Origin: Candidatus Fermentibacterota bacterium
GTDB lineage: Bacteria; Fermentibacterota; Fermentibacteria; Fermentibacterales; JCC-6
Reading direction: 5' to 3'
NCBI GenBank assembly: GCA_963845085.1
Contig: CAWJQI010000004.1
Span: 736,001-800,000, forward strand
Length of the DNA stretch: 64,000 nucleotides
Position 1 is the first letter of the stretch, and every line of letters starts with the position of its first letter. Below are positions 19,402 to 34,123 of the stretch, piece by piece. The notes under the pieces are model-generated. The model saw only the letters and a list, made by a program, of their open reading frames with translations, ran no database searches and had not been told where the DNA came from. The translations under genes and the position numbers were made by a program.

Positions 19402-20961
19402 CTACCTTACCAGAACCACCCTTGCTGATGCATCAATTCCATCACAGCAGAACCGAAAGAAGTAGACTCCCGAAGCAAGCTGCGAGCCCTGGGAATTGCA
19501 GCCATCCCAAAGCCAGGTAAACTGGCCTGCGGGATTGGATCCAAGTTCCTGTGATCTTACAAGGTGGCCGAAGATATCGTAAACCTCAAGAGTCACCTGT
19601 GACAGACCGGGGGATTGAAAGGAAATGGTTGCGCTGGATGTCATGGGATTAGGCAGAATGCTGAGTTCTTGGAAACCGTTCGGCAGTGGCGCCTCGTCAG
19701 GTGCGTCGACCTCCAGCTCATCGACCCACTTGGCGAAGTAAAGCGACACAATCCCATCTGCCAGAAAGAAGTGGTTTCCAACAGTGGTGAATACACCGCC
19801 CACATAGACATCTGGACCATCTGCCACAATTGCCCGTACAAACTGGCTCACGCCGCAGTCAAGATCCGACCAGGAGTCGCCATCCCAACGGGCGATGCGG
19901 TATGCTGGAACTCCCCCTGCAGTGGTGAAGAAGCCCCCCGCATACACATCGGTGCCGCTCACTTCAATGGAAAAGACTTTGTTGTTCACGCCATCTCCCA
20001 GTGCCGACCAGGAGTTGCCATCCCACCTGGCGATGTGGTTTGCGGAAACTCCGCCAGCTTGATGAAATTCCCCACCGGCGTAAATGTCCGATCCGTTCAC
20101 CGCGATGGCAAGGACCCTCATGTCTACACCACTTCCCAGTGCTGACCAGGAGCTGCCATCCCACCTGGCGATGTGGTTTGCGGAAACTCCGCCAGCTTGA
20201 TGAAATTCCCCACCGGCGTAAATGTCCGATCCGTTCACCGCGATGGCATGGACCCAATCGTCTACACCACTGCCCAAGGCCGACCAGGAAGTACCGTCCC
20301 AAAGGGCAATACAGTGCACAACAACGCCGCCCGCTTGCTCGAAGGATCCTCCCGCATACACATCCGAACCATTCACTGCAATGGTGGTCACAACGTAGCT
20401 GGTGCCACCACCAACACTCGACCAGGAGCTGCCATCCCACCTGGCGATGTGGTTCGCGCTAACCCCACCAGCTTGGTGGAACCAGCCTCCCGCATATACA
20501 TTCGAACCGCACACCGCGATGGCTGTGACATAATTGTCAATGCCACTTCCCAGTGCCGACCAGGAGATGCCATCCCACTTGGCGATGTTGCTTGCAGGCA
20601 TTCCACCCGCTTGTGTGAAGTATCCTCCCACAAACACATCCGAACCACTCACAGCTATCGCAAACAATTCGCCGTTCATACCCTGCCCCCCCGGAGGGTA
20701 ACCAAACCCGTCATACCAGTAACCCGTCGCGCTCTCTTGAAGTAATGGAATAGCATCAATTGTTTCTGATTCATCACCCACGAATACGGGTTCCCCTTCG
20801 GGTCCATAAGTCATGCGAAAACCAAAAGGACTGACACTGCCCGACAAACCGTCAATGAGAGTACCGTCAGGGGCAAGTACAGCAGCAAGTGAAGGATTCG
20901 AGTCGGCCGACGCCAAGGAAACAAGTATCAGAAGCGCGATCCAGAAAAAGAATGCCTTCAT
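19402..20961 (-). CDS. Secreted beta-propeller protein (46-aa repeats) with T9SS/FlgD-like CTD
   Basis: Signal peptide; ~7 repeats VYAGG.F..AGG..A..IA.WDG..WS.LG.G; CTD ILPNP...WDG...ASGVYF. Confidence 0.85.
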   Translation of the reverse strand: MKAFFFWIALLILVSLASADSNPSLAAVLAPDGTLIDGLSGSVSPFGFRMTYGPEGEPVFVGDESETIDAIPLLQESATGYWYDGFGYPPGGQGMNGELFAIAVSGSDVFVGGYFTQAGGMPASNIAKWDGISWSALGSGIDNYVTAIAVCGSNVYAGGWFHQAGGVSANHIARWDGSSWSSVGGGTSYVVTTIAVNGSDVYAGGSFEQAGGVVVHCIALWDGTSWSALGSGVDDWVHAIAVNGSDIYAGGEFHQAGGVSANHIARWDGSSWSALGSGVDMRVLAIAVNGSDIYAGGEFHQAGGVSANHIARWDGNSWSALGDGVNNKVFSIEVSGTDVYAGGFFTTAGGVPAYRIARWDGDSWSDLDCGVSQFVRAIVADGPDVYVGGVFTTVGNHFFLADGIVSLYFAKWVDELEVDAPDEAPLPNGFQELSILPNPMTSSATISFQSPGLSQVTLEVYDIFGHLVRSQELGSNPAGQFTWLWDGCNSQGSQLASGVYFFRFCCDGIDASARVVLVR

Positions 20962-21415: not shown

Positions 21416-24330
21416 GTGTCGAATCCTTCCCCTCACAGACTTGGTATTATCATCCTTAACGTGCTGATCCTGCTCACTCAGTCCCTTTTTGCAGCGGAAC
21501 CAGGGGAGAACACAATTCCCATCATCGGCATGCGGACATCCAACAACGAGTTCTTTTCGGGAATTGGGCTTCGCCTTCTCTGCGAGCTATCCTGGAAGCA
21601 CTTCGACGGCGTTGAGGTGGAGGGGCCGGTGGTTCCTTGGCCTATTGGTGAAAACTGGCAGATGAACCGCGATTTCATAGATCTCTGCGGTGACGCAGGC
21701 ATGCTTCTTGTTCTGGCCCCCTGGGAGGTTTGCCAGTTCTACAACTCTTGGAGCGACAGCACTGCTTACTGGTGCAGGTGGACCGAGGGTTCCACCCCAA
21801 TAACATCAGACAGTTGCTTCGTCAGAATTGCACCGAGATTTTAATTCAATGAACGGGATCAGGTCTGCAATGGTCATGGCAGATACCAGCGAAGTTTATT
21901 CCATTGCCGGTGTGAACAACCAGTTGGCGAGCACTGTGGATACTCTGTCCGCCCTGTGGTGCTACAACGTATACGACGAGGCTCCAGCGCGGCAGCGTAC
22001 CAGAATGATAGAAGGTTCCACGACGTGGGACGATTGGATCCCGAACCTCTTCACACAGGACACACTGAGCAACGGTGATCCTACCCTGACCGAGATAGAA
22101 CCCGCGGGCATCTACTCATGGCAGAAGCATCTTGCCGAGAACAACACCTACCGGGATGTTCCACTCACCATCAACTTCTCACTGCTGCACACCATCAATC
22201 CAGGCGAGTACACAGGCTTCAGCGGCATCAGCGGCGGCACCATGCACCAACAGGCCAATTCGGTCAGAGCGTTGTGCGGAGCATTGTTTCAGGGGCCTCC
22301 GTCCGGCGGAATTACACCGGCCCCTGTCGACAACTCCCCCGGGTTCATCTGCTTCGACTACTACCCGTTCCGTTACGTGGACATGGATTCCGTTGGAACA
22401 ACCCTCTGCGACGACGGCTGGCTCTTCCTTGTTGACCACTGCGAGGAGGGGATGGACTCAACGGTGTTCGCTGCGAGGGAGAGCGGGACCCCTGTGTTCT
22501 TCTACCCCCAGGCCTTCGGAGCTTCCGGAGGACCGCAGCTCCTGGACAGTCAGGGCAATCTGGACTACCATTCCTACAACTACCGCACTCCCGCTCCGCA
22601 GGAGTTCAGGATGCTGTGTCACCTGGCACTGCTACACCAGGCCAAAGGGCTGTTCCCGTACTCGCTGGCAAGCTACATATCGGACCCCGGTGATCCAGCC
22701 GATTCGGACAACTTCATCTGCAACTCGCTTCTCGATCTTCACGGCATACCCTTCGATGCCCCCTACGAGGAGTGGGTGTACACCGGAAGATGGCCGGATA
22801 CGGGTGGCTGGGAAGACGGGTACGAGTACGCCGACCCCGGGGAGCTTCCCCCTTCAGCGCGGGATTCGACCCTCTCTACGAGGTATCGGCAGCACCGGTT
22901 CCAGTGCAGGATGACCCGAAGAACACCGAGAGGTTTCTGACATGGTTCTTCGAGCCCTACTCGAGGCTTTACGACGGCGTTGAGGTTCCCCTTGCAGAAG
23001 CTGCCGTGATTGCACCCGAGATGTCGAACCTCTGGTGGTGGGACGGTTCCCAGGACGTTGCAGTGATGGTCCCCGTACATGACCCCGCGATTTACGACAA
23101 CTACGTTCCCCCCGTGATAAAGGTGTTCCTGGGGCCTGACAGCAGCCACGTCTACATCTACTGCGTGAACCGTTACCTCCGGGATGCCGAGACGGATTAC
23201 ACCGTCTCGATCGTTAAATCCCTGAGTCCCGGCTTTGTATCCGCGACGGTTCTTGACCACAGCAGGCGTTTTCTGATACCGGCTCCGCCGGGGGGCGGGG
23301 CCAACAATGTGTTCTATGCATTCACCGACACTCTGGAAGCCGGTGAGGGCAGGCTGCTGGAGTTTGTCGACTCAAGCATTCCGGCAGACCTCCGGGTGAC
23401 ATCACCGGACGTGTACGCAATCAGGGAAGGCTCTCTGGAGAGGACGAACCGGCTGGTCTGCACAGCGGGTGAAACACTGACCCTCGGAGCCGTGTACTAC
23501 AACATGGGTACTGCAGCCACCGGTAACATCGCAGTTGATCTTCTAAAAGGAGGGTACGCCGTTATATACTGGGCACCGACACAATACGTCTTGGCGGGCT
23601 GTCGGGGTGCTACAGCCCCGACAGCGTGTCTGCGGAGATAGATTGGGAGACCGACATAGACGATGTGGGCGTTCACAGGATAGAGATAAGCGCTGGAAGC
23701 GTGTCAGGTGAGAACACTTCCGACAACTCCGTCACCGTAGCCGTTCTGGTGGAGCCTGCGGACTACTCGTCAGAGGTTCTCGGGAACGCCTGGGACATGA
23801 CGGAGGCGTTGAGCAGCCCGCCGGTCTGGTACACGTCGGACATCGAATCGGTCTCTTCGGGCTGGGACTCCACGGCCTGGACCGATTCCATCAGCGGCAT
23901 GTTCGAGGGGGAACTGAGTGTTCCCGCCCCCGGGCAGCTCTTTGCGGGCGACATCCTTCTCAGTGAAGACAGCGATGAGCCCTTAGACGCGGACGAGTAC
24001 ACGATGCTGAGCCTTGCCGGGGTGTGCATGAATCCCAACATGACTGGCAGCAGTTTCGGTTGCGGCATGTTCCTGTTCTGGAGGGATTCCACGGAAACGG
24101 GGCACATACTTGAGCTTCACGGGAGCAACGGCTTCGGTCGTGGGCTTGGCAACGGCCGTGAGATGTGGAGAGAGTTCGGACCTTTGGACCTGAGCGGAGT
24201 CTCCGGCTGGAACGGCGAGGTTCACGATGTGGGGATAAGGTTCCAGATGGATCCGCCGGGCCAGGGCGTCGTACCCGCTCCCCTGTCCATACGGCTGGGC
24301 TGGATACAGCTGGAGAGGGGGGCGTTGTGA
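21416..24330 (+). CDS. Large secreted protein with CARDB-like domain, split by about three frameshifts
   Basis: Signal peptide in 21416 ORF; overlapping protein-like ORFs 21828, 22772, 23626; YYNMGT...WET...G.H.IEI..DNS. Confidence 0.55.
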
Positions 24331-26186
24331 AGGCTCTTGTTCTGCTGCCCTGCTTTCTGTTGCCGGCGTTTCTCTACTCGGGTGAGTCCATTCAGACCAA
24401 CTGGTCTTCAGGTCCTGGAGTAACCGGTCCCGTCACCGATTGGAGCGACTCCTTCGACCTCCACCAGTACATGGACTACGAGGGCACGACGGGAGAGCTG
24501 TACCTGAATCTGAGGGGCGATAAGTATCAGGTTGCCGACCTGGGGGGATATATATGTCCGGGAGTGGTGGCTGACATCAACGGTGATGGTCATCTGGACA
24601 TAGTCTGTGGAACCCAGGGGCTCGGTTACAATTTCAACAAGGCCTACTGGTTCGAGAACGATGGTGCAGGCGGAGGCTGGGAAAGGCATGCGATAAGCAA
24701 TTCAGGGGAGACTTTTATACTTCGATCCGTCTGCGCCGTGGATGTTGACAATGATGGTGACCTGGACGTGGTCGGAGGCGAGGGATCCACTAACTACGAC
24801 AGAAAAATCTATCTCTGGACCAATACCGACGGAACGGGGTTGAACTGGGAGACGAGCATCATCGATGACAATCTTCTCACGGCTCCGATTCGAGTCATAC
24901 CCACGGACATTGATGGAGACGGGAACCAGGACATTCTTGTTCAGAGAGCTGGACCGGATGGGCATCTCGTATGGTATGAGAATCCTGAATCTGTCAGGTT
25001 GGAACCCTTTGATGGATGGACAGAGCACTTCATCGGCTACAAGAGCCCTCAGGACCTTTGTGCCGCAGACATCAACGGCGATGGTTGGATGGATGTGGTC
25101 AGTGCAGCGAACAACAGTCAACCCGGGTACAAGAAGATTTCTTTCTGGGAGAACTTGGACGGAACCGGAGACAATTGGGTGGAGAACTCCATATGCAGCA
25201 GCACTCTTTGGGAGCCATACGCAGTCTGCGCGGCCGATGTCGACAATGATGGAGATCTGGATGTAACTGCCGCTGATTGGACCGAGTGGGTTTCTTGGTT
25301 CGAAAACACTGACGGAACCGGTCACTCATGGGTTGAGAGGCAGGTTGACAATCCTGTTGTATCCGGAACTTCGATAGTGGTGTTCGATGTGGACCTTGAT
25401 GGAGATGCCGACATAGTCGGGGCCTTTCCAACCCAATGTATGGCAGTATGGGAAAACATTGATGGCGCAGGCGGCAACTGGAGAAGGCATTTCGTTGAGT
25501 ATGGTCCCAATTACGTCGGGCTTTCAGTCGGGGACATTGATGGAGACGATACGCTGGATGTGGTGGGGTACGTTGATTCGGGAAGCAACATATCCTGGTA
25601 TCGTCTTGGCTACCCCTCCACTGGAACACTGACCTCCTCGATACTGGACGTGAACAATTACCCCCACTGGCAGGAAGTTCAGTGGCAGGACAGCGTTCCT
25701 GCCGGTTCTTCCCTGAGGTTCCGCGTTCGGAGTTCCAACGATCCCGAAGACATGGGGAGCTGGTCGGGTTACATTGAGGAGCCAGGGAGCCTGTCGGGGT
25801 ATGTTGACAGCACCCACCGTTACCTCCAGTACCGGGTTCACATGGAACCGGCCGGCCGGTTCGTTACCCCCACTCTCTATCAGGTGCTGTTCTACTGGGA
25901 GTGGCTTGGAGTGGAGGGGGCTGAAGGAGTGACACGTCTTCACCCCGTCACCCCCAATCCAAGTTCAGGTCCTGTGGAGATACGGTTCAATCTTGCGGAG
26001 CCGGGTCCCGTTGCGCTTCAGGTGTTCGACCTATGCGGCCGTTTGGTCGCCTTGCCGGTGGACGGCGAGGTGTCGGGCGGTGAACACTCGGTTCAGCTTG
26101 CTTCCATTCCTCCGGGAGCATACTTCGTCAGGATGACGACGGGAGAAGAAGTACTAAGGGAGCGCTTTGTTCTGGTGAGTAACTGA
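24327..26186 (+). CDS. FG-GAP/VCBS-repeat protein with T9SS CTD
   Basis: GTG start overlapping the upstream TGA; repeated D.D.DGD.D and W.EN.DG.G..W; CTD TPNP...VFDLCGR...GAYF. Confidence 0.88.
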   Translation: MKALVLLPCFLLPAFLYSGESIQTNWSSGPGVTGPVTDWSDSFDLHQYMDYEGTTGELYLNLRGDKYQVADLGGYICPGVVADINGDGHLDIVCGTQGLGYNFNKAYWFENDGAGGGWERHAISNSGETFILRSVCAVDVDNDGDLDVVGGEGSTNYDRKIYLWTNTDGTGLNWETSIIDDNLLTAPIRVIPTDIDGDGNQDILVQRAGPDGHLVWYENPESVRLEPFDGWTEHFIGYKSPQDLCAADINGDGWMDVVSAANNSQPGYKKISFWENLDGTGDNWVENSICSSTLWEPYAVCAADVDNDGDLDVTAADWTEWVSWFENTDGTGHSWVERQVDNPVVSGTSIVVFDVDLDGDADIVGAFPTQCMAVWENIDGAGGNWRRHFVEYGPNYVGLSVGDIDGDDTLDVVGYVDSGSNISWYRLGYPSTGTLTSSILDVNNYPHWQEVQWQDSVPAGSSLRFRVRSSNDPEDMGSWSGYIEEPGSLSGYVDSTHRYLQYRVHMEPAGRFVTPTLYQVLFYWEWLGVEGAEGVTRLHPVTPNPSSGPVEIRFNLAEPGPVALQVFDLCGRLVALPVDGEVSGGEHSVQLASIPPGAYFVRMTTGEEVLRERFVLVSN

Positions 26187-26211: not shown

Positions 26212-26265
26212 ATGAAAAAGCCGCCGGGGACTCTCCCGGCGGCCTCTATCCCATCTGGCGGTCCG
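26212..26265. repeat. Direct repeat copy 4 (native tRNA-Asp 3' end + terminator)
   Basis: Includes the last 10 nt of tRNA-Asp (CGGACCGCCA on minus). Confidence 0.95.
26215..26243 (-). terminator. Rho-independent terminator of tRNA-Asp
   Basis: GCCGCCGGG-AGAGTC-CCCGGCGGC stem followed by TTTTT on minus. Confidence 0.8.
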
Positions 26266-26332
26266 GACGAGACTCGAACTCGCAACTTCCGGCGTGACAG
26301 GCCGGTGCTCTAACCGATTGAACTACCGGACC
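26256..26332 (-). tRNA. tRNA-Asp(GTC)
   Basis: Cloverleaf: acceptor GGTCCGG/CCGGACC, anticodon arm CCGGC-CTGTCAC-GCCGG, GTTCGAG, encoded CCA. Confidence 0.97.
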
Positions 26333-26377: not shown

Positions 26378-26478
26378 GTGCTAAGGCCCCCTGCGGGGTA
26401 TTGCCTTGGAACATGCTGTCGAATAGAATACTATTGGTTTCAGGAAAAGAAATTCTCTGTTTACTGACGGGAGTTAAA

Positions 26479-27078
26479 ATGAGAACATCGCTTATACTGC
26501 TCGCAATGCTTGGTCTTTCAGCCTTTGGTGCCGATGTGGAGATAGGATCGAGCCAGTTTCAGTACAACGCACCACTCTGCGCGAATTGAACTGAATCCTT
26601 GCGCTACCAGGTGGTAGTGCTGGGCAGCGAGATCGGTGATGCCATGACCATCAACTCCATTGCTTTCTACTGCATGTCAGGCGAAACCGTGACATTCAAC
26701 CAGTTCATCGTATACATGGGCGAGGCCTCGGGCAGCGTTCTTGGAAACAACTTCGAAGACAACTACTCCGGCAACAAGGTGACAGTTTACAACCACAACA
26801 ACGTCACCTTTACCCCGAGCGGCGAATGGGTCAACATCCCCCTCGACACTCCGTATTTTTACGACGGAACGGGCAACCTCATCATCGAGATCGGCTGGCC
26901 GGACGGGGTTGATGAGATTTACGCCGGCTGCTGGAGCACATCGGGCAACAGGATGTTGACCTCGTTTTTCGGAAGCCCCACGGGCGACCTTTTCGAGTTC
27001 TGCCCGAACCTTCTTTTTTCGGGAAGCATGAGCCTTGCACCCATGACCTTCGGCTCAATCAAGGCGAGTTTCCAGTAA
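26479..27078 (+). CDS. Putative secreted selenoprotein A (CxxU, Sec37), 199 aa
   Basis: Signal MRTSLILLAMLGLSAFG then PLCAN-UGA(26587-89)-TESLRYQ in frame with ORF 26599-27078; SECIS-like hairpin. Confidence 0.85.
26601..26620 (+). promoter_or_regulatory. SECIS-like hairpin A
   Basis: GCGCUACC-AGGU-GGUAGUGC, starting 11 nt after UGA. Confidence 0.8.
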
Positions 27079-27115
27079 GGGTTTTGTTCCGTTCGTTCTG
27101 ACGATGGGAGGGGCA

Positions 27116-27736
27116 TTGGGCAAATGGACTCTGGCGGTAATGGCTGTTGGTTTTTCAGCCATGGCTGCGGACATCGTCATAGGTTCAAGTGTTTATCCCA
27201 TGGACATTCCACTGTGCGGGCCTTGAAGACCCGCATTGCGCTACCAGGTGGTAGTGCTTGGAAGCGAAATCGCTGACGCAATGACGATAGAATCACTGAC
27301 ATTCAACGCTTCGGAGAGCACGGGAGATTACTCGAGTTTCCAGCAGTACTACGTTTACATGGGCCCCACTACCCTCAGCAGCCTGGGAACAGATTTCGAT
27401 GACAACTATTCCGGGCCGAGGATCAAGGTATTCGACCACTCCAACGTTACCCACTACAACATAGGCGGAGTTGTCACCATACCCCTCGATACACCGTACT
27501 TCTACAATGGCCAGGATAACTTCATCATCGAGATCAACTACTTCGGCGGCGACATCGAACCAAACTCAAGCGTGTACTCAATGTACTGCTCCGTGGATAC
27601 TGACCGGATGCTTCATGCCTACTCCTTCGATGCGACAACGGGAACGACCGAGCGAGCACTTCCACATCTGATGATGACCGGCACCATGGATCTTGATGCC
27701 TGCACATTTGGTGGAATCAAGGCAAGCTTTCAGTAG
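27116..27736 (+). CDS. Putative secreted selenoprotein B (CxxU, Sec37), 206 aa
   Basis: TTG after GGGAGGGG; MGKWTLAVMAVGFSAMAADIVIGSSVYPMDIPLCGP-UGA(27224-26)-RPALRYQ in frame with ORF 27236-27736. Confidence 0.85.
27238..27257 (+). promoter_or_regulatory. SECIS-like hairpin B
   Basis: Identical to hairpin A, also 11 nt after UGA. Confidence 0.8.
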
Positions 27737-27927
27737 CTCTGTGTAACCGGTGCGGGCAGCGTTCCTCTGATTCTCAGTGAGACCCAAAGGAATGCTGCCC
27801 TTTCTGTTTCTGTTTGGAGGAGACGCGGAATGGAATAGCTCTTCCTCGGATATGATAGTATCGTTGCACAGATGTTCGAAAACCTGACAGGCGATGTTTT
27901 GCATCACATCAAGGGGGTCGAGGCCTG

Positions 27928-29301
27928 ATGAGGGCAATTCTTGCAGTACTTGTCATAGCGGCGGCGGCGGTCGCTCAGTGTCCCTTGCGGTTAACCCCTG
28001 CCGAAGCCTGTCATGAAGGCGCCGCAAGGTGCGCACTCTACGTCGACGCCAACGGAGACCAGCGCTGCGACAACCCGGGTCCCCAGCCAGTGATCGACCC
28101 CGAGCCGGAGCCTGAGCCTGAGCCGGAAACTGAACCCGAGAACCCTGTTGTCGAGGAGGGTCCAGATGACCCCGAGCCCGAGCCGGAGCCCGTTCAGCAA
28201 ACTGTAACAGAAACCACCGAACCACGCCCCGAGGATGTTGAAGAAAGCGCGCCGGCCGACTCTGTCAGGGTTGAACCTGAAGATATCGAGGTTACTGACA
28301 GTCTGGCCGTAGCTCCCGAGACGTCCGGCTTTACAGGATGCCCTCTTGGCTACATTCCGGAAGAGGCTTGCACCATTACGGCGCCGGGGTGCGCGTTGTT
28401 CACCGATACAGATGGTGACGGCAGGTGCGACAACCCCGCAGCGCCTGCGGAAACGCTTCCGGACAGCACCGAGGCTGTAACGGTGATCGGTTGCCCCCTG
28501 GGTCTTCCCCCCGAGGCTGCATGCCCGGGCGAACTTGCGTTATGCCCCCACTGGCTGGGGCAATCCACTGCAGTTCAATGCTCAAACCCTTCGGCCGGGA
28601 GCAGGCGGGTCTACATCGCCTTGATCGCCCTGGCAGTCTTGATGAGCCTTTCCACAGTTCTCAGCAGGCGTCTGAGAGGGAGAAAACTTGCAGAGCGGCT
28701 TCGTCGCAGCATAGCCCACAAGACCGTGCACGGGCTGAGCCTGATCGTTCTGGGTTTCGGCATTCAGGGCTGCTTCTGCCCGCTCGGAACATTCCAGTAT
28801 GCTTTCATGAAGGATGGGCTGGTGTTTCTGGGATGGGCAGGGGTCGCGCTCCTCGCAATTCCCTTCCTGTTTGCGGCATTCTTCGGCAGGATCTTCTGCT
28901 GCTGGGTCTGCCCCATGGGCGCAATGCAGGAGCTCGCATATCACATTCCATCCCCCGGAAAGCTCAACCCCAGGGGAAGGGTGAGCAGGGCTTTCGGCCG
29001 TTTCAGGTTCGTTGTTCTGGGCGCACTTCTAACGGTGCTCCTGCTCAACCGGTTTGAAATGATGCACTCCCAGTGGCCGGCGGTTTTCTGCAGGATCGAT
29101 CCCTTCCACACCATTTTCACGCTCTTTCTCACGGGGAGCATGATGGCTGCGGGTGTTACCCTGCTTCTGTCCGTGTTCGTGAGAAGGTTCTTCTGCAGGT
29201 ACCTGTGCTTCCTCGGCGCCGCGCTCAGTTTGTTGACCCCGCTGAGGCTCTACAGCCGCATCACCGGGAAGAAACCCCTCAAGACCAACTGCGAGATCTG
29301 A
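27928..29301 (+). CDS. NapH/MauN-like 4Fe-4S-binding membrane protein with exported Cys-rich repeats
   Basis: CFCPLG, GRIFCCWVCPMG, FCRIDPF, RFFCRYLC; signal peptide; three CPL...C...C...C.NP repeats. Confidence 0.8.
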   Translation: MRAILAVLVIAAAAVAQCPLRLTPAEACHEGAARCALYVDANGDQRCDNPGPQPVIDPEPEPEPEPETEPENPVVEEGPDDPEPEPEPVQQTVTETTEPRPEDVEESAPADSVRVEPEDIEVTDSLAVAPETSGFTGCPLGYIPEEACTITAPGCALFTDTDGDGRCDNPAAPAETLPDSTEAVTVIGCPLGLPPEAACPGELALCPHWLGQSTAVQCSNPSAGSRRVYIALIALAVLMSLSTVLSRRLRGRKLAERLRRSIAHKTVHGLSLIVLGFGIQGCFCPLGTFQYAFMKDGLVFLGWAGVALLAIPFLFAAFFGRIFCCWVCPMGAMQELAYHIPSPGKLNPRGRVSRAFGRFRFVVLGALLTVLLLNRFEMMHSQWPAVFCRIDPFHTIFTLFLTGSMMAAGVTLLLSVFVRRFFCRYLCFLGAALSLLTPLRLYSRITGKKPLKTNCEI

Positions 29302-31112: not shown

Positions 31113-33017
31113 ATGAGGGAGACCTGGGGAAGCAAACGGGCCTTCATTCTGGCGGCGATCGGAAGCGCCATCGGGCTCGGAAACATCTGGAGATTTCCAT
31201 ACATCGCCTACGCCAACGGTGGCGGCGCCTTTCTTGTGGCCTACTTCGCATGCCTGTTCGTGGCGGGAATTCCTGTGCTGATGCTTGAGTTCGGCCTGGG
31301 TCACAGGTACAGGCAGGCTGCTCCCGGTGCCTTTCGTAGCATCAAACCTTCGCTTGAGTGGTTCGGCTGGATGGCGGCACTGTTGTCCTTCGCAATAGTT
31401 GTTTACTACGCCATCATCATGGCCTGGTGTGTGAACTACACTTACGAGGCCGCCACACTCGGCTGGAAGCAGGAACCCGGGCTTTATGCCGATCCGGCTG
31501 CAGCCGTCTCAACCACTGATCTTGCTGATATGCAGGTTCTCACCCCAGTTCCTCCCGAGATGGGTGGTACGCCATTTGTTTCTTCAGTAAGCGGGGCAAC
31601 TGGGGTGGTTGTACCGGAACCCACAACTCTTGTTTCCAGCGACGGGGCCATCTACGGGTTCGCAAACCGGTCGCAGGCGGAGGCATTCGCGGCGGATCCC
31701 TTCCGGAATGAGCTGTGCGCGCTGGCGTCAGCGGAAGGCGCCGGAACGCGCATCCTCACGGATATCCCTGCGGAACTCCTCGGCAGACCCTATGTGTCGC
31801 CTGTTGACGGATCGGCAGGCGTGGTCAGGAACATCTCCACGATTCTTGTTGCCTTCGACGGCAAGCTCTATGCTTTTGACAGCGTTGATGAGGCCAGCAC
31901 CTTCATGGGCTCGCCCGGAGATTTCTTCTACAACAGGTTCCTCGGGCTCACCTCGAAGCCGTGGGATTTCGGAACATTCCGCTGGCCGCTTCTCGTTGGT
32001 TTCATCGTGTCATGGGTATGGATAATCGCAAGCATATGGAAAGGAACCAAGACGGTGGGGCGTGTTGTCTACTACACCGTCATCATCCCGTGGGTGCTGC
32101 TGCTGGTGTTCATAATAAGGGGCGTTACACTGCCGGGGGCGGGTGTCGGGCTTGCCTATTACCTCACACCCGATTGGGCGCGGCTTCTCAGCGGTGATAT
32201 CTGGCTTGCGGCGCTGACCCAGGTTTTCTTCAGCCTGAGCGTCGGGTTCGGTGTGATGATAGCCTACGGCAGCTTCCTTCCGAAGAAGACAGACATAGCG
32301 GGGAGCGCGTTCATAATCGGAATTGCCGACTCGCTCACCGCCTTCTGCTGCGGAATAGCGGTGTTCAGCGCTCTCGGATTCCAGGCGGCACGGCTCGGTG
32401 TTCCTGTAAGCGAGGTTGTCAAATCCGGTCCGGGGCTTGCTTTCGTGGCCTATCCGCACATCATCACAAGCCTGCCCGCTGCTCCCGTATTCGGGGTGCT
32501 GTTTTTCCTCATGCTCCTCACCCTGGCAATTGATTCTGCATTCAGCCTTGTCGAGGGGGTGACATCATCCCTGAAGGACAAGTGGGGGCTGTCGCACAGG
32601 AAGGTCAACCTCATGGTGGGAACGGCGGCGTTCATCTTCGGGTTGCCGATGCTCTCAGGTGCGGGGTTGTACATCCTGGACATAGTTGACCACTTCATGA
32701 ACAGCGTTGCGCTGGTTCTTGTTGTTCTGGGGCAGCTCATAATCGTCGGCTGGGCCCTGTCCGCCGAGAAGATGCGCACCTACATCAACGCAAACTCGTC
32801 GATAAGGACAGGCTGGTGGTGGAACACAAGCATCAGGTGGATCATCCCGATGGGAATGATCTGGATGCTTGCAAGCGAGCTTCAGGCCAGGGGGGCATCC
32901 GCATACGGGAATTTCGGCCTTCGTAGCCAGGAATTCATCCTGGGGTGGCTTGTGGTGATGCTGCTTCCCGTGCTGGGCGACGTTTTTGCGTCACGAAAGG
33001 GAACCTGGAAGGACTAG
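31113..33017 (+). CDS. Na+-dependent transporter, NSS/SNF family
   Basis: GSAIGLGNIWRFPY, NGGGAF, QVFFSLS.GFG, GPGLAFVAYP. Confidence 0.92.
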   Translation: MRETWGSKRAFILAAIGSAIGLGNIWRFPYIAYANGGGAFLVAYFACLFVAGIPVLMLEFGLGHRYRQAAPGAFRSIKPSLEWFGWMAALLSFAIVVYYAIIMAWCVNYTYEAATLGWKQEPGLYADPAAAVSTTDLADMQVLTPVPPEMGGTPFVSSVSGATGVVVPEPTTLVSSDGAIYGFANRSQAEAFAADPFRNELCALASAEGAGTRILTDIPAELLGRPYVSPVDGSAGVVRNISTILVAFDGKLYAFDSVDEASTFMGSPGDFFYNRFLGLTSKPWDFGTFRWPLLVGFIVSWVWIIASIWKGTKTVGRVVYYTVIIPWVLLLVFIIRGVTLPGAGVGLAYYLTPDWARLLSGDIWLAALTQVFFSLSVGFGVMIAYGSFLPKKTDIAGSAFIIGIADSLTAFCCGIAVFSALGFQAARLGVPVSEVVKSGPGLAFVAYPHIITSLPAAPVFGVLFFLMLLTLAIDSAFSLVEGVTSSLKDKWGLSHRKVNLMVGTAAFIFGLPMLSGAGLYILDIVDHFMNSVALVLVVLGQLIIVGWALSAEKMRTYINANSSIRTGWWWNTSIRWIIPMGMIWMLASELQARGASAYGNFGLRSQEFILGWLVVMLLPVLGDVFASRKGTWKD

Positions 33018-34123
33018 TACCCCCCCAGCGCAGGACAGGTCGAGCAGTCCGACGAGACGCATTCGAGATCGGCCCGGATGAGATAGCTGAAACCGGAATC
33101 GGGTTCGCACCGGTATCCGAAACCGGTCACGTACTGGAAAACGATGCCTGACCTTTCGGTATCGTACGGTTCGTACTCCACCGCGAACAATCGGAATCTG
33201 CGCGCCTCGGCCTCCAGCACCGCCTGCTGCTGCCAGTCTGAAAGAACAGCTTCCGACCTGTGATCGAACCACCAGGGGCCGATGACACCGGACAGCTCCG
33301 GGATCCTGCCGAGCGCTTCCAGCCAATCCGTGGTGTCGGCTGAAACCACGACCATCGGGGGCATTTCAGCTCCGGAAAGGTCTTCCGCGAGTTCGAGCCC
33401 CCTGTCGCCCGCCATGCCGGTGAAGGTCAGAAGGTAAAGGGTATCCTGGTCCGTGGCGCTCCAGACGCCGGACCGGTCGTTCTGCGGTTCGACAAGCAGG
33501 GGGTCGGCAGGCTGCGAATAGTACGCCGCAAGCCCCCTGATGCCGATGACCATGAAGTACACGGCCACGAATACGGCGAGTACCCTGGCGGCCGCCGTGA
33601 ACCATTTTCTGGCCGTGAAAAGACCGGCGATGGAAAGCGGCAGCATGTAGACCGTTGTTCCAAAGAAGAATCCCGCAAACAGAAGCGCGCCGCTCAGCGC
33701 GCCTCCCGCATCGAACGCGCTTGTGAGGGCAATAAGGAATGCCGGGCATAACGAGAAGCCTGTGAGAATGCCAAGAAGGAAGGGGCTGCCCGTAAACTTC
33801 GTCCAGCGGGATACACCGCAGCCCCCGCACTTTTTATTAACCCTCAGGGTGCTGATCAGAAGAAAGATGCTGAACAGGATGTAGCCCGCGAAGGAGAGGG
33901 GTATCCTGATACCGGATGGGATGCTCCCCCCGAGCATGCCGATGACTGCTCCGAAACAGACGTAGGCTGCGAACCTTCCCAGGTTCAGGGTGAGCAGGAC
34001 CAAGAGCGATTGTCTGCCGCTCCTCTTCTCGCTGAAGAGGTAAGCCGCGTAGACCGGACCGCACGAGGCCAGACAGGACACTCCCGTTGCGAGTCCGAGG
34101 CTCAGCCCCTCAGCAAGCGCCAC
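33014..34123 (-). CDS. DsbD_2 / TauE-SafE-like membrane protein with soluble Cys-containing C-domain
   Basis: CLASCGP, NLGRF..Y, G.LTGFSLCP, FFFGT; C-terminal C..SDCSTCP. Confidence 0.7.
   Translation of the reverse strand: MALAEGLSLGLATGVSCLASCGPVYAAYLFSEKRSGRQSLLVLLTLNLGRFAAYVCFGAVIGMLGGSIPSGIRIPLSFAGYILFSIFLLISTLRVNKKCGGCGVSRWTKFTGSPFLLGILTGFSLCPAFLIALTSAFDAGGALSGALLFAGFFFGTTVYMLPLSIAGLFTARKWFTAAARVLAVFVAVYFMVIGIRGLAAYYSQPADPLLVEPQNDRSGVWSATDQDTLYLLTFTGMAGDRGLELAEDLSGAEMPPMVVVSADTTDWLEALGRIPELSGVIGPWWFDHRSEAVLSDWQQQAVLEAEARRFRLFAVEYEPYDTERSGIVFQYVTGFGYRCEPDSGFSYLIRADLECVSSDCSTCPALGGY

Follow-up and report, generated by a model that had tools for sequence, protein, structure and literature searches.

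A hairpin of bacterial SECIS type downstream of in-frame UGA codons in a family of predicted exported CxxU proteins of Fermentibacterota

Two adjacent genes of a Candidatus Fermentibacterota bacterium carry the same short hairpin at the same distance from an in-frame UGA codon. The best explanation of this arrangement is a bacterial SECIS element that recodes the UGA as selenocysteine (Sec) in a family of CxxU proteins, a reading to which we assign a probability of about 0.93 (0.93-0.95 for the hairpin being a SECIS of ordinary type that directs Sec insertion at the UGA). The genes lie in a 64-kb stretch of DNA, hereafter the window, from a 2.45-Mb genome that is 88% complete. The element is of a known kind; the selenoprotein family that hosts it was not found in the catalogues checked, and newer ones could include it. 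The family is multi-copy, apparently extracellular and of non-thioredoxin fold, and it is cut short by gene callers and invisible to catalogue-based searches. In addition, more than one hundred copies of the hairpin, together with compensatory changes and Cys controls, provide an unusually clean natural experiment on the needs of SelB in one phylum.

Two copies of the hairpin in the window

When TGA is read as Sec, both genes yield proteins of ~200 residues with a signal-peptide-like start, a C-x-x-U motif and a TFGxIKAxF end. Gene 1 (26479-27078, forward strand, as are all features of the window unless otherwise stated) would encode a 199-aa exported selenoprotein comprising a signal peptide, the CxxU motif (Cys34 and Sec37), a modelled beta-sandwich and the C-terminal tail, here TFGSIKASFQ (27046-27075). 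Its motif, C-A-N-U, spans 26578-26589, with the TGA at 26587-26589 preceded by T at 26586; databases hold an entry only for a 159-aa frame of this gene, beginning at TTG 26599. Gene 2 (27104-27736), a tandem paralogue 49% identical to gene 1, starts at ATG 27104 or, likelier, at TTG 27116 behind a GGAGG, and its C-G-P-U motif occupies 27215-27226, the TGA at 27224-27226 again being preceded by T (27223). A sigma-70-like promoter match (9/12) lies 5' of gene 1 at 26401-26429, at chance level for such matches (2 found, 1.3 expected), and a tRNA-Asp gene is found at 26256-26332 on the reverse strand.

The 23-nt sequence TTGCGCTACCAGGTGGTAGTGCT occurs at both 26599-26621 and 27236-27258. The identity ends exactly at both edges (run of 23, with 0 extra matching bases on the left). 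As the preliminary description of this DNA had claimed, the codons that follow the hairpin differ at silent positions and the spacers are largely dissimilar, agreeing at 4 of 11 positions. The 23-mer starts 9 nt after the TGA and its first two bases are the last two of the spacer, which measures 11 nt from TGA to stem in both copies. The predicted fold is likewise the one described earlier, an 8-bp stem including one G-U pair and carrying an AGGU loop; its energy is -13.3 kcal/mol (z = -4.45), and none of 200 shuffled sequences was equally stable. In copy 1 the hairpin covers 26601-26620, with the loop at 26609-26612, 19 nt after UGA; copy 2, of the same sequence, covers 27238-27257. Outside the hairpin the two paralogues agree in codon at 40 of the 84 amino acids they share, and the chance of a run of seven identical codons is p ~0.006 for a stretch picked post hoc. 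The family-wide codon data presented below are much stronger evidence than this two-copy test.

According to the consensus given in the SECIS section of PMC13188914, a bacterial SECIS has an apical loop of 3-9 nt with a G in its first two positions, an upper stem of 4-16 bp, an energy of -7.5 kcal/mol or lower and a distance of 16-37 nt from UGA to loop. The window hairpin agrees with that consensus in all four criteria, with its loop of 4 nt, stem of 8 bp, G at position 2 followed by another G, and spacing of 19 nt at the energy given above; relative to it, the hairpins of the family are more tightly placed (+19 or +22 only). Like the E. coli fdhF SECIS (NC_000913), the window hairpin resides in the coding sequence, begins 11 nt after the UGA and has a short upper stem, a CAGGT apex and a loop G. 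However, RNAfold gives the fdhF stem a bulged base, whereas the stems of the family consist of 6-8 uninterrupted pairs; AGGT stands 19 nt after the UGA in the window hairpin and 17 nt in fdhF, the loop being displaced outward by 1-2 nt; and the family is without a visible conserved lower stem. The hairpin is most likely a bacterial SECIS, not of fdhF type in detail. The SECIS families of Rfam gave no match to it at the gathering score, nor at E values up to 10.

Conservation of the hairpin across the phylum

The family is represented by 321 matches in 68 of the 70 genomes of the phylum, the two genomes without a match being 73% and 79% complete, and it reaches up to 10 copies per genome; the genome of the window contains 8 paralogues, 7 of them with TGA. 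Among the 150 matches listed, only TGA or no stop was seen, with exactly one TGA in 130 and no stop in 20. The analysis was conducted on 135 distinct genes, 116 UGA forms and 19 Cys forms, from which one off-frame match had been left out beforehand and in which nearly all of the listed matches without a stop are included, so that Cys forms are over-represented. The TGA aligns with Cys: CxxU is found in 111 of the 116 UGA forms and CxxC in 18 of the 19 Cys forms, the first Cys being absent from 5 of the former. The recoded codon was TGA in all 116 genes and never TAA or TAG, in frames that the script had split at TAA and TAG. A search of genome contigs for related loci returned one MAG only, and in the Atlas a Cys homologue falls with clusters of hypothetical proteins, the commonest phylum being Ca. 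Fermentibacterota.

Of the 116 UGA forms, 113 have a stem of at least 5 bp that closes a 4-nt loop. None of the 19 Cys forms has one, and these are the homologues in which a retained hairpin had been named at the outset as evidence against a SECIS. The mean hairpin energies are -10.2 kcal/mol in UGA forms and -2.9 kcal/mol in Cys forms. Each of the six inner stem pairs is formed in 114-115 of 115 UGA genes, one shifted gene having been left out. The loop starts at +19 after the UGA in 107 of 116 genes and at +22 in the other 9, and it reads AGGT in 96, AGTT in 13, AGGC in 5 and AGGG in 2. Within the stem, the silent third base of a Tyr codon covaries with its pairing partner (C-G in 67 genes, T-A in 48 and a C-C mismatch in 1), at which a swap turns Val into Ile or Met; both sites have undergone 8 changes on the tree.

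These data bear on a simpler account of the two identical window copies, in which the identity would stem from constraint on the encoded peptide RYQVVV, from codon bias or from a recent gene-conversion event, the hairpin being incidental. The copies do belong to adjacent paralogues, and Gln is encoded by CAG in 90% of cases in these genes anyway. However, a silent site that switches together with an amino-acid-changing partner is the opposite of protein constraint, and the Cys forms retain R-Y-Q with scrambled codons. Codon bias fares no better: among the 107 UGA genes of the same register, Arg is encoded by CGC in 96 of 96 cases, against a background of 12%, Gln is CAG in 107 of 107 and Val is GTG in 88 of 88, whereas Pro at -5 is spread over its four codons (36/35/22/14). 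The hairpin has a 16-nt core that recurs unchanged in 37 UGA genes, drawn from 10 genera and three families, but in none of the 19 Cys genes, and its identity across 10 genera rules out local gene conversion. Covariation and the Cys controls have already largely refuted this account, to which we give almost no chance.

The counts above come from related genomes and, because the genomes are kin, are not independent of each other. On a tree computed with a quick method from which the hairpin codons were excluded, the Cys forms require 5 changes, and every Cys form is without the stem. Independent events amount to 1 Sec/Cys pair and 3 covariation pairs on well-supported branches, and to 5 and 8, respectively, on all branches; sign tests on the two kinds of pairs with this quick tree were not significant, the events being too few.

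That the UGA is a real stop, with a leader peptide or pseudogene remnant upstream and a hairpin regulating an annotated start at TTG 26599 or at a later ATG, is just as remote. In its favour, databases contain many 140-170-aa downstream pieces, and both hairpins of the window have a TTG at their base. Of the 59 Leu codons found at this place, however, just 5 are TTG, and the internal codon is TGA without exception. The signal-peptide-like start and the conserved G, P and Cys residues, all on the 5' side of the UGA, can moreover be aligned with Cys homologues of full length.

Selenocysteine machinery, other Sec genes and the base before the UGA

SelA, SelB and SelD are encoded in the genome with scores above curated cut-offs, both winged-helix domains being found in SelB, and the sole tRNA with a UCA anticodon is a tRNA-Sec (Rfam RF01852, 71.4 bits). 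Alongside the covariation and the difference between UGA and Cys forms, this machinery upholds the earlier claim that the hairpin is a SECIS. TGA terminates 668 of the 1018 long ORFs and is the main stop of the genome, which therefore points to site-specific recoding and not to a changed code. Some bacteria possess tRNA(Sec)-like systems that insert Cys. A reassigned code or a variant tRNA could in principle lead to read-through of the UGA with Cys, Trp or Gly, the hairpin serving that process. The prevalence of TGA as a terminator argues against such a scheme, as do a tRNA set in which the one UCA tRNA scores as tRNA-Sec and tRNA-Trp has the anticodon CCA, and the presence of SelA and a Sec-type SelD; we consider it highly improbable. 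ARAGORN also called a 90-nt tRNA-Gly with the anticodon ACC (G000:C5:968841-968930), which is unusual in bacteria and may be a false call.

A comparison with known selenoprotein genes had been proposed, and in the SelD gene of the genome the single in-frame TGA precedes a hairpin of related form whose loop is AGGUU. Of 28 SelD genes from across the phylum, 23 have AGGY starting at +21 above a stem of 7-10 bp, and the 2 Cys SelDs lack such a stem; three spurious pattern matches and the two Cys rows were removed from this count, to which locus L222 contributes no row. A second SelD subtype (L214, L216, L232 and L233) also has a UGA, but its hairpin is weaker, of another form and closer to the codon. 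Two selD genes are found in many of the genomes, and the SelD at L226 has two TGAs (UAGU). The genes suggested for the comparison turned out mostly not to be selenoproteins here: no internal stop was found in the matches to molybdopterin oxidoreductases (2), Pyr_redox_2 proteins (17, a class that includes HdrA-like proteins), peroxiredoxins (3) or MvhD (1). The search of the genome for GrdB gave no match, nor did it in the controls, and is uninformative.

A coding-potential scan of all TGAs of the genome revealed a second Sec family, consisting of four Omp28-like UxxC proteins with T9SS-like tails. The loop is GGUC at +19 in 3 of these 4 genes, and among the Omp28-like genes a stem of at least 6 at +19 is found in 33 of 35 UGA forms versus 0 of 6 Cys forms. 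The four proteins, which bear the thioredoxin motif, are encoded at G000:C4:51844(+), C5:786648(+), C5:499622(-) and C4:684398(-) (L129-L132), in a family that is phylum-wide and multi-copy. They are distantly related to the Omp28-related UxxC selenoprotein GOS_C (NCBIfam NF045500; best E 5.5e-10), three scoring 18-39 bits against a cut-off of 200 bits and the fourth giving no match; the CxxU all-beta proteins of the window are unrelated to that model and do not match it. The selenoproteome found in this incomplete genome thus comprises SelD and 11 exported-looking proteins (12 homology-backed sites), from a scan that required 15 codons after the TGA and would consequently miss C-terminal Sec. 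From inspection of their N-termini, 11 of the 12 Sec proteins look exported, with a clear hydrophobic peak in gene 1 only.

These additional genes set limits to the idea that the 23-mer is the organism's SECIS. It most likely forms a SECIS; as a sequence it is only this family's version, constrained to encode RYQVVV, the Omp28-like genes having mostly GGUC and the SelD genes AGG at +21. The probe derived from it in the preliminary description, TGA-N11-stem-AGGT, was specific: its 5 matches among 82,009 TGA triplets were without exception real, and the pattern did not occur after TAA (15,043) or TAG (16,761). It captured only 5 of the 12 homology-backed Sec sites. A relaxed probe, written after the sites were known and hence not blind, captured 11 of the 12 in 31 matches. 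A looser scan, which allowed any offset and asked only for an AGG loop and a stem of at least 6, gave 14 hits at +19 compared with 2-10 for other codons; as this is barely above the other codons, a stricter loop and stem or a tie to coding potential is needed. The working element is a geometry, namely a stem of 6-8 bp and a loop of 4-5 nt with G at position 2 that starts 19-22 nt after the UGA, in nearly all cases with a U directly before that codon, and the 23-mer is one family's spelling of it.

The base directly before the Sec UGA is T in 113 of 116 genes of the CxxU family, 37 of 38 Omp28-like genes and 28 of 28 SelD genes (the last by hand count), or 178 of 182, as compared with 8 of 19 and 0 of 6 at the same place in the Cys forms of the CxxU and Omp28-like families. 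The background is 24% (1869/7850) at like codons of the same genes and 17% (108/646) before TGAs that end long frames. The sites are synonymous positions in three unrelated families, the rows inside each family being kin. E. coli fdhF has C before its UGA, so the rule is not universal, and it was not found in the SECIS section of PMC13188914, whose printed model has no U 5' of the UGA, or in the parts of PMC7026636 consulted. The U perhaps weakens termination; it is a possible 5' context rule for the SelB of this phylum and one that is easily tested in a reporter.

Fold, neighbourhood and possible role of the CxxU proteins

No match to the family was found in Pfam or NCBIfam (E up to 1, with both window proteins and two Cys homologues as queries) or among PDB sequences. 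Nor is the family recognisable among the 119 families of Table 1 of PMC13188914, whose Pfam-, TIGRFAM- and NCBIfam-defined entries gave 0 matches when scanned. With the CxxU selenoproteins of that table (SelW-like, AhpD-like, GrdA and the FCYXU TonB receptor) it has in common the CxxU motif, Cys homologues and an intragenic SECIS; unlike them, it is predicted to be a jelly-roll beta-sandwich instead of a thioredoxin or helical protein, and has a signal-peptide-like start and a C-terminal tail. The consulted parts of the BSepDB description (PMC13326102) list Fermentibacterota genomes and a screen with previously reported families, and the phylum is not mentioned in those of the deep-Sep report (PMC12013277). 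Our literature search found nothing on selenoproteins in Fermentibacter/Hyd24-12 or with Omp28, and returned little on secreted CxxU proteins.

AlphaFold2, supplied with a 98-row alignment, modelled the protein (pLDDT 95.5) as an almost all-beta sandwich with a short C-terminal helix and with CxxU in a loop; a thioredoxin fold, with the motif at the start of a helix, was looked for and is not what the model shows. Structure comparison retrieved jelly-roll modules (Z 8.9-10.9, rmsd 3.3-5.8 A, 139-160 residues aligned, identity 6-11%; best Foldseek E 7e-4), among them the PbeAcXE CBM-like domain (7tog), the Cwp84 lectin-like domain (4ci7), PHR domains (3gbw and 3no8) and phage tail-tip domains (9d93). 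The top matches are tied and functionally unrelated, and the fold does not give the function; the likeness to carbohydrate-binding modules, with Z values of up to 10.9, is one of fold only and is shared by non-lectins. The domain is also repeated in large surface proteins of other bacteria (1016 matches), in which a CxxC at the matching place occurs in 2 of 381 domain copies from 113 long proteins. One of the 2 is in P0116, a long repeat protein of 3118 aa that has P-x-C-x-x-C there. Distant three-repeat proteins of 560-590 aa were also found, and those read look like lipoproteins. Given how rarely CxxC is seen in the domain copies elsewhere, the redox motif appears to have been added to a widespread surface module: a beta-sandwich domain that is common without cysteines in other bacteria may have gained CxxU on an N-terminal loop.

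Downstream of gene 2 lies a gene for a NosR/NapH-like membrane polyferredoxin (27928-29301; Fer4_5 E 2e-13, NosR E 1e-15, NapH E 4e-10, far below the equivalog cut-offs) with a predicted signal peptide. It has the Fer4_5 membrane part of the NosR/NirI and NapH/MauN polyferredoxins, but the gene adjacent to it encodes a predicted selenoprotein, not a reductase. Its N-terminal part (27928-28600) contains three Cys-rich repeats of the form CP[LF]x5-9ACx4-8C with Pro/Glu-rich linkers; the repeats matched no recognised family and gave no usable match in the Atlas, and their single-sequence fold was unusable (pLDDT 47). The polyferredoxin gene is present as a single copy in 61 of 70 genomes, and a gene of the CxxU family stands directly upstream of it in 54 of the 56 in which this could be tested: by the listed coordinates 52 are on the same strand (52/52 with TGA) and 2 are contig-cut pieces, in 5 further genomes the gene lies at a contig end, and in the remaining 2 (G018 and G049, the latter covering only ~1.5 kb upstream) no adjacent family gene was seen. 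A second conserved neighbour, a DsbD_2-family (CcdA-like) membrane protein with Cys motifs, is encoded in the window at 33014-34123 on the reverse strand; in 43 of the 57 genomes that have both, a DsbD_2-like gene is found no more than 10 kb from the polyferredoxin gene, and in the other 14 the two are on different contigs. Genes for a transporter and a methyltransferase accompany this block as well.

From this organization, the following route can be proposed. As established for bacterial Sec decoding, the SECIS 11 bases after the in-frame UGA would recruit SelB-GTP-Sec-tRNA(Sec), and reading of the UGA as Sec would yield full-length, probably exported CxxU proteins of ~200 residues. The Cys/Sec pair could then form a redox-active selenenyl-sulfide outside the inner membrane, to be re-reduced via the neighbouring polyferredoxin and its Cys-rich, presumably periplasmic repeats, perhaps with a share taken by the DsbD-like protein and Omp28-like thioredoxins; the Cys versions would act as selenium-independent back-ups. 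The conserved neighbours and the Cys pairs suggest such an envelope redox line with selenium-free back-ups. We offer as tentative the notion that a membrane electron line fed by the polyferredoxin ends, on its outer side, in the CxxU proteins, and put its odds somewhat below even. A strong terminator-like 13-bp hairpin with a U-rich tail (27754-27809; -30.6 kcal/mol, z -5.7) separates gene 2 from the polyferredoxin gene here and counts against the partnership, as do the transporter and methyltransferase genes that share the block and the two genomes that showed no adjacent family gene. Were the polyferredoxin the electron source, there would be a testable route to explain the use of selenium outside the cell by anaerobic fermenters. 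The terminator-like hairpin had escaped a consensus scan on account of its long loop.

If the SECIS is real, CxxU may equally have no part in an electron relay and serve in soft-metal binding, in the capture and handing-on of selenium at the surface, or as a Se-S bond with a structural part in a module that binds glycans. The likeness to carbohydrate-binding jelly-roll modules (Z 9.5-10.9, rmsd 3.4-5.8 A, 142-160 residues aligned) would suit these roles, as would the 5 UGA forms of 116 that lack the first Cys and the position of family genes within ~3 kb of selD in at least 8 genomes, in one of them beside a gene that we take to be TusA/YedF-like (G051). On the other side, the conserved neighbours are membrane electron-transfer proteins, and 15 of the 19 Cys forms, mostly from one clade, have a Cys gene of thioredoxin fold next to them. 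A metal-, selenium- or glycan-binding role appears to us about as likely as one in an electron line.

The 15 Cys family genes beside Omp28-like genes without a stop derive from 17 that were looked at (12 on the same strand, 3 divergent and 2 without such a neighbour). All-Cys pairs of an Omp28-like CxxC and a family CxxC protein were seen at L028, L030, L032, L034, L036-L038 and L040-L043, and contig G004:C20 also has a Cys SelD. The family genes near selD include L202 (G061:C59), L203 (G051:C99) and those on G033:C32, G045:C85, G013:C74, G026:C70 and G018:C44; in G061 and G051 a Sec Omp28-like gene lies between the family gene and selD. The predicted complex of an Omp28-like and a family protein, a natural Cys pair from one operon of G019, had a score of 0.07 against a mark of 0.32 and carries no weight either way. 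A still broader picture, in which Fermentibacterota employ Sec almost only for the cell exterior, the CxxU jelly-roll family ends a trans-membrane electron line made up of the polyferredoxin, the DsbD-like protein and Omp28-like UxxC thioredoxins and backed up by all-Cys operons, and U-UGA is a second recoding part selected independently in three families, is speculative and, taken as a whole, less likely than not.

A tail like TFGSIKASFQ ends 29 of the 10,056 open frames of at least 100 codons in the genome. The TFGxIKAxF-type tail therefore probably has a general role in sorting or anchoring that is not peculiar to the family, and it is a candidate second sorting signal. Tails of the form [TS][FW][GA]x[IVL]K occur on unrelated frames of 160-280 aa and differ from the T9SS-like tails that other exported proteins bear. 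In the window, an FG-GAP-repeat protein (24165-26186) and a DUF5122 beta-propeller protein (19402-20961) have T9SS/FlgD-like C-terminal domains and appear to be ordinary surface proteins.
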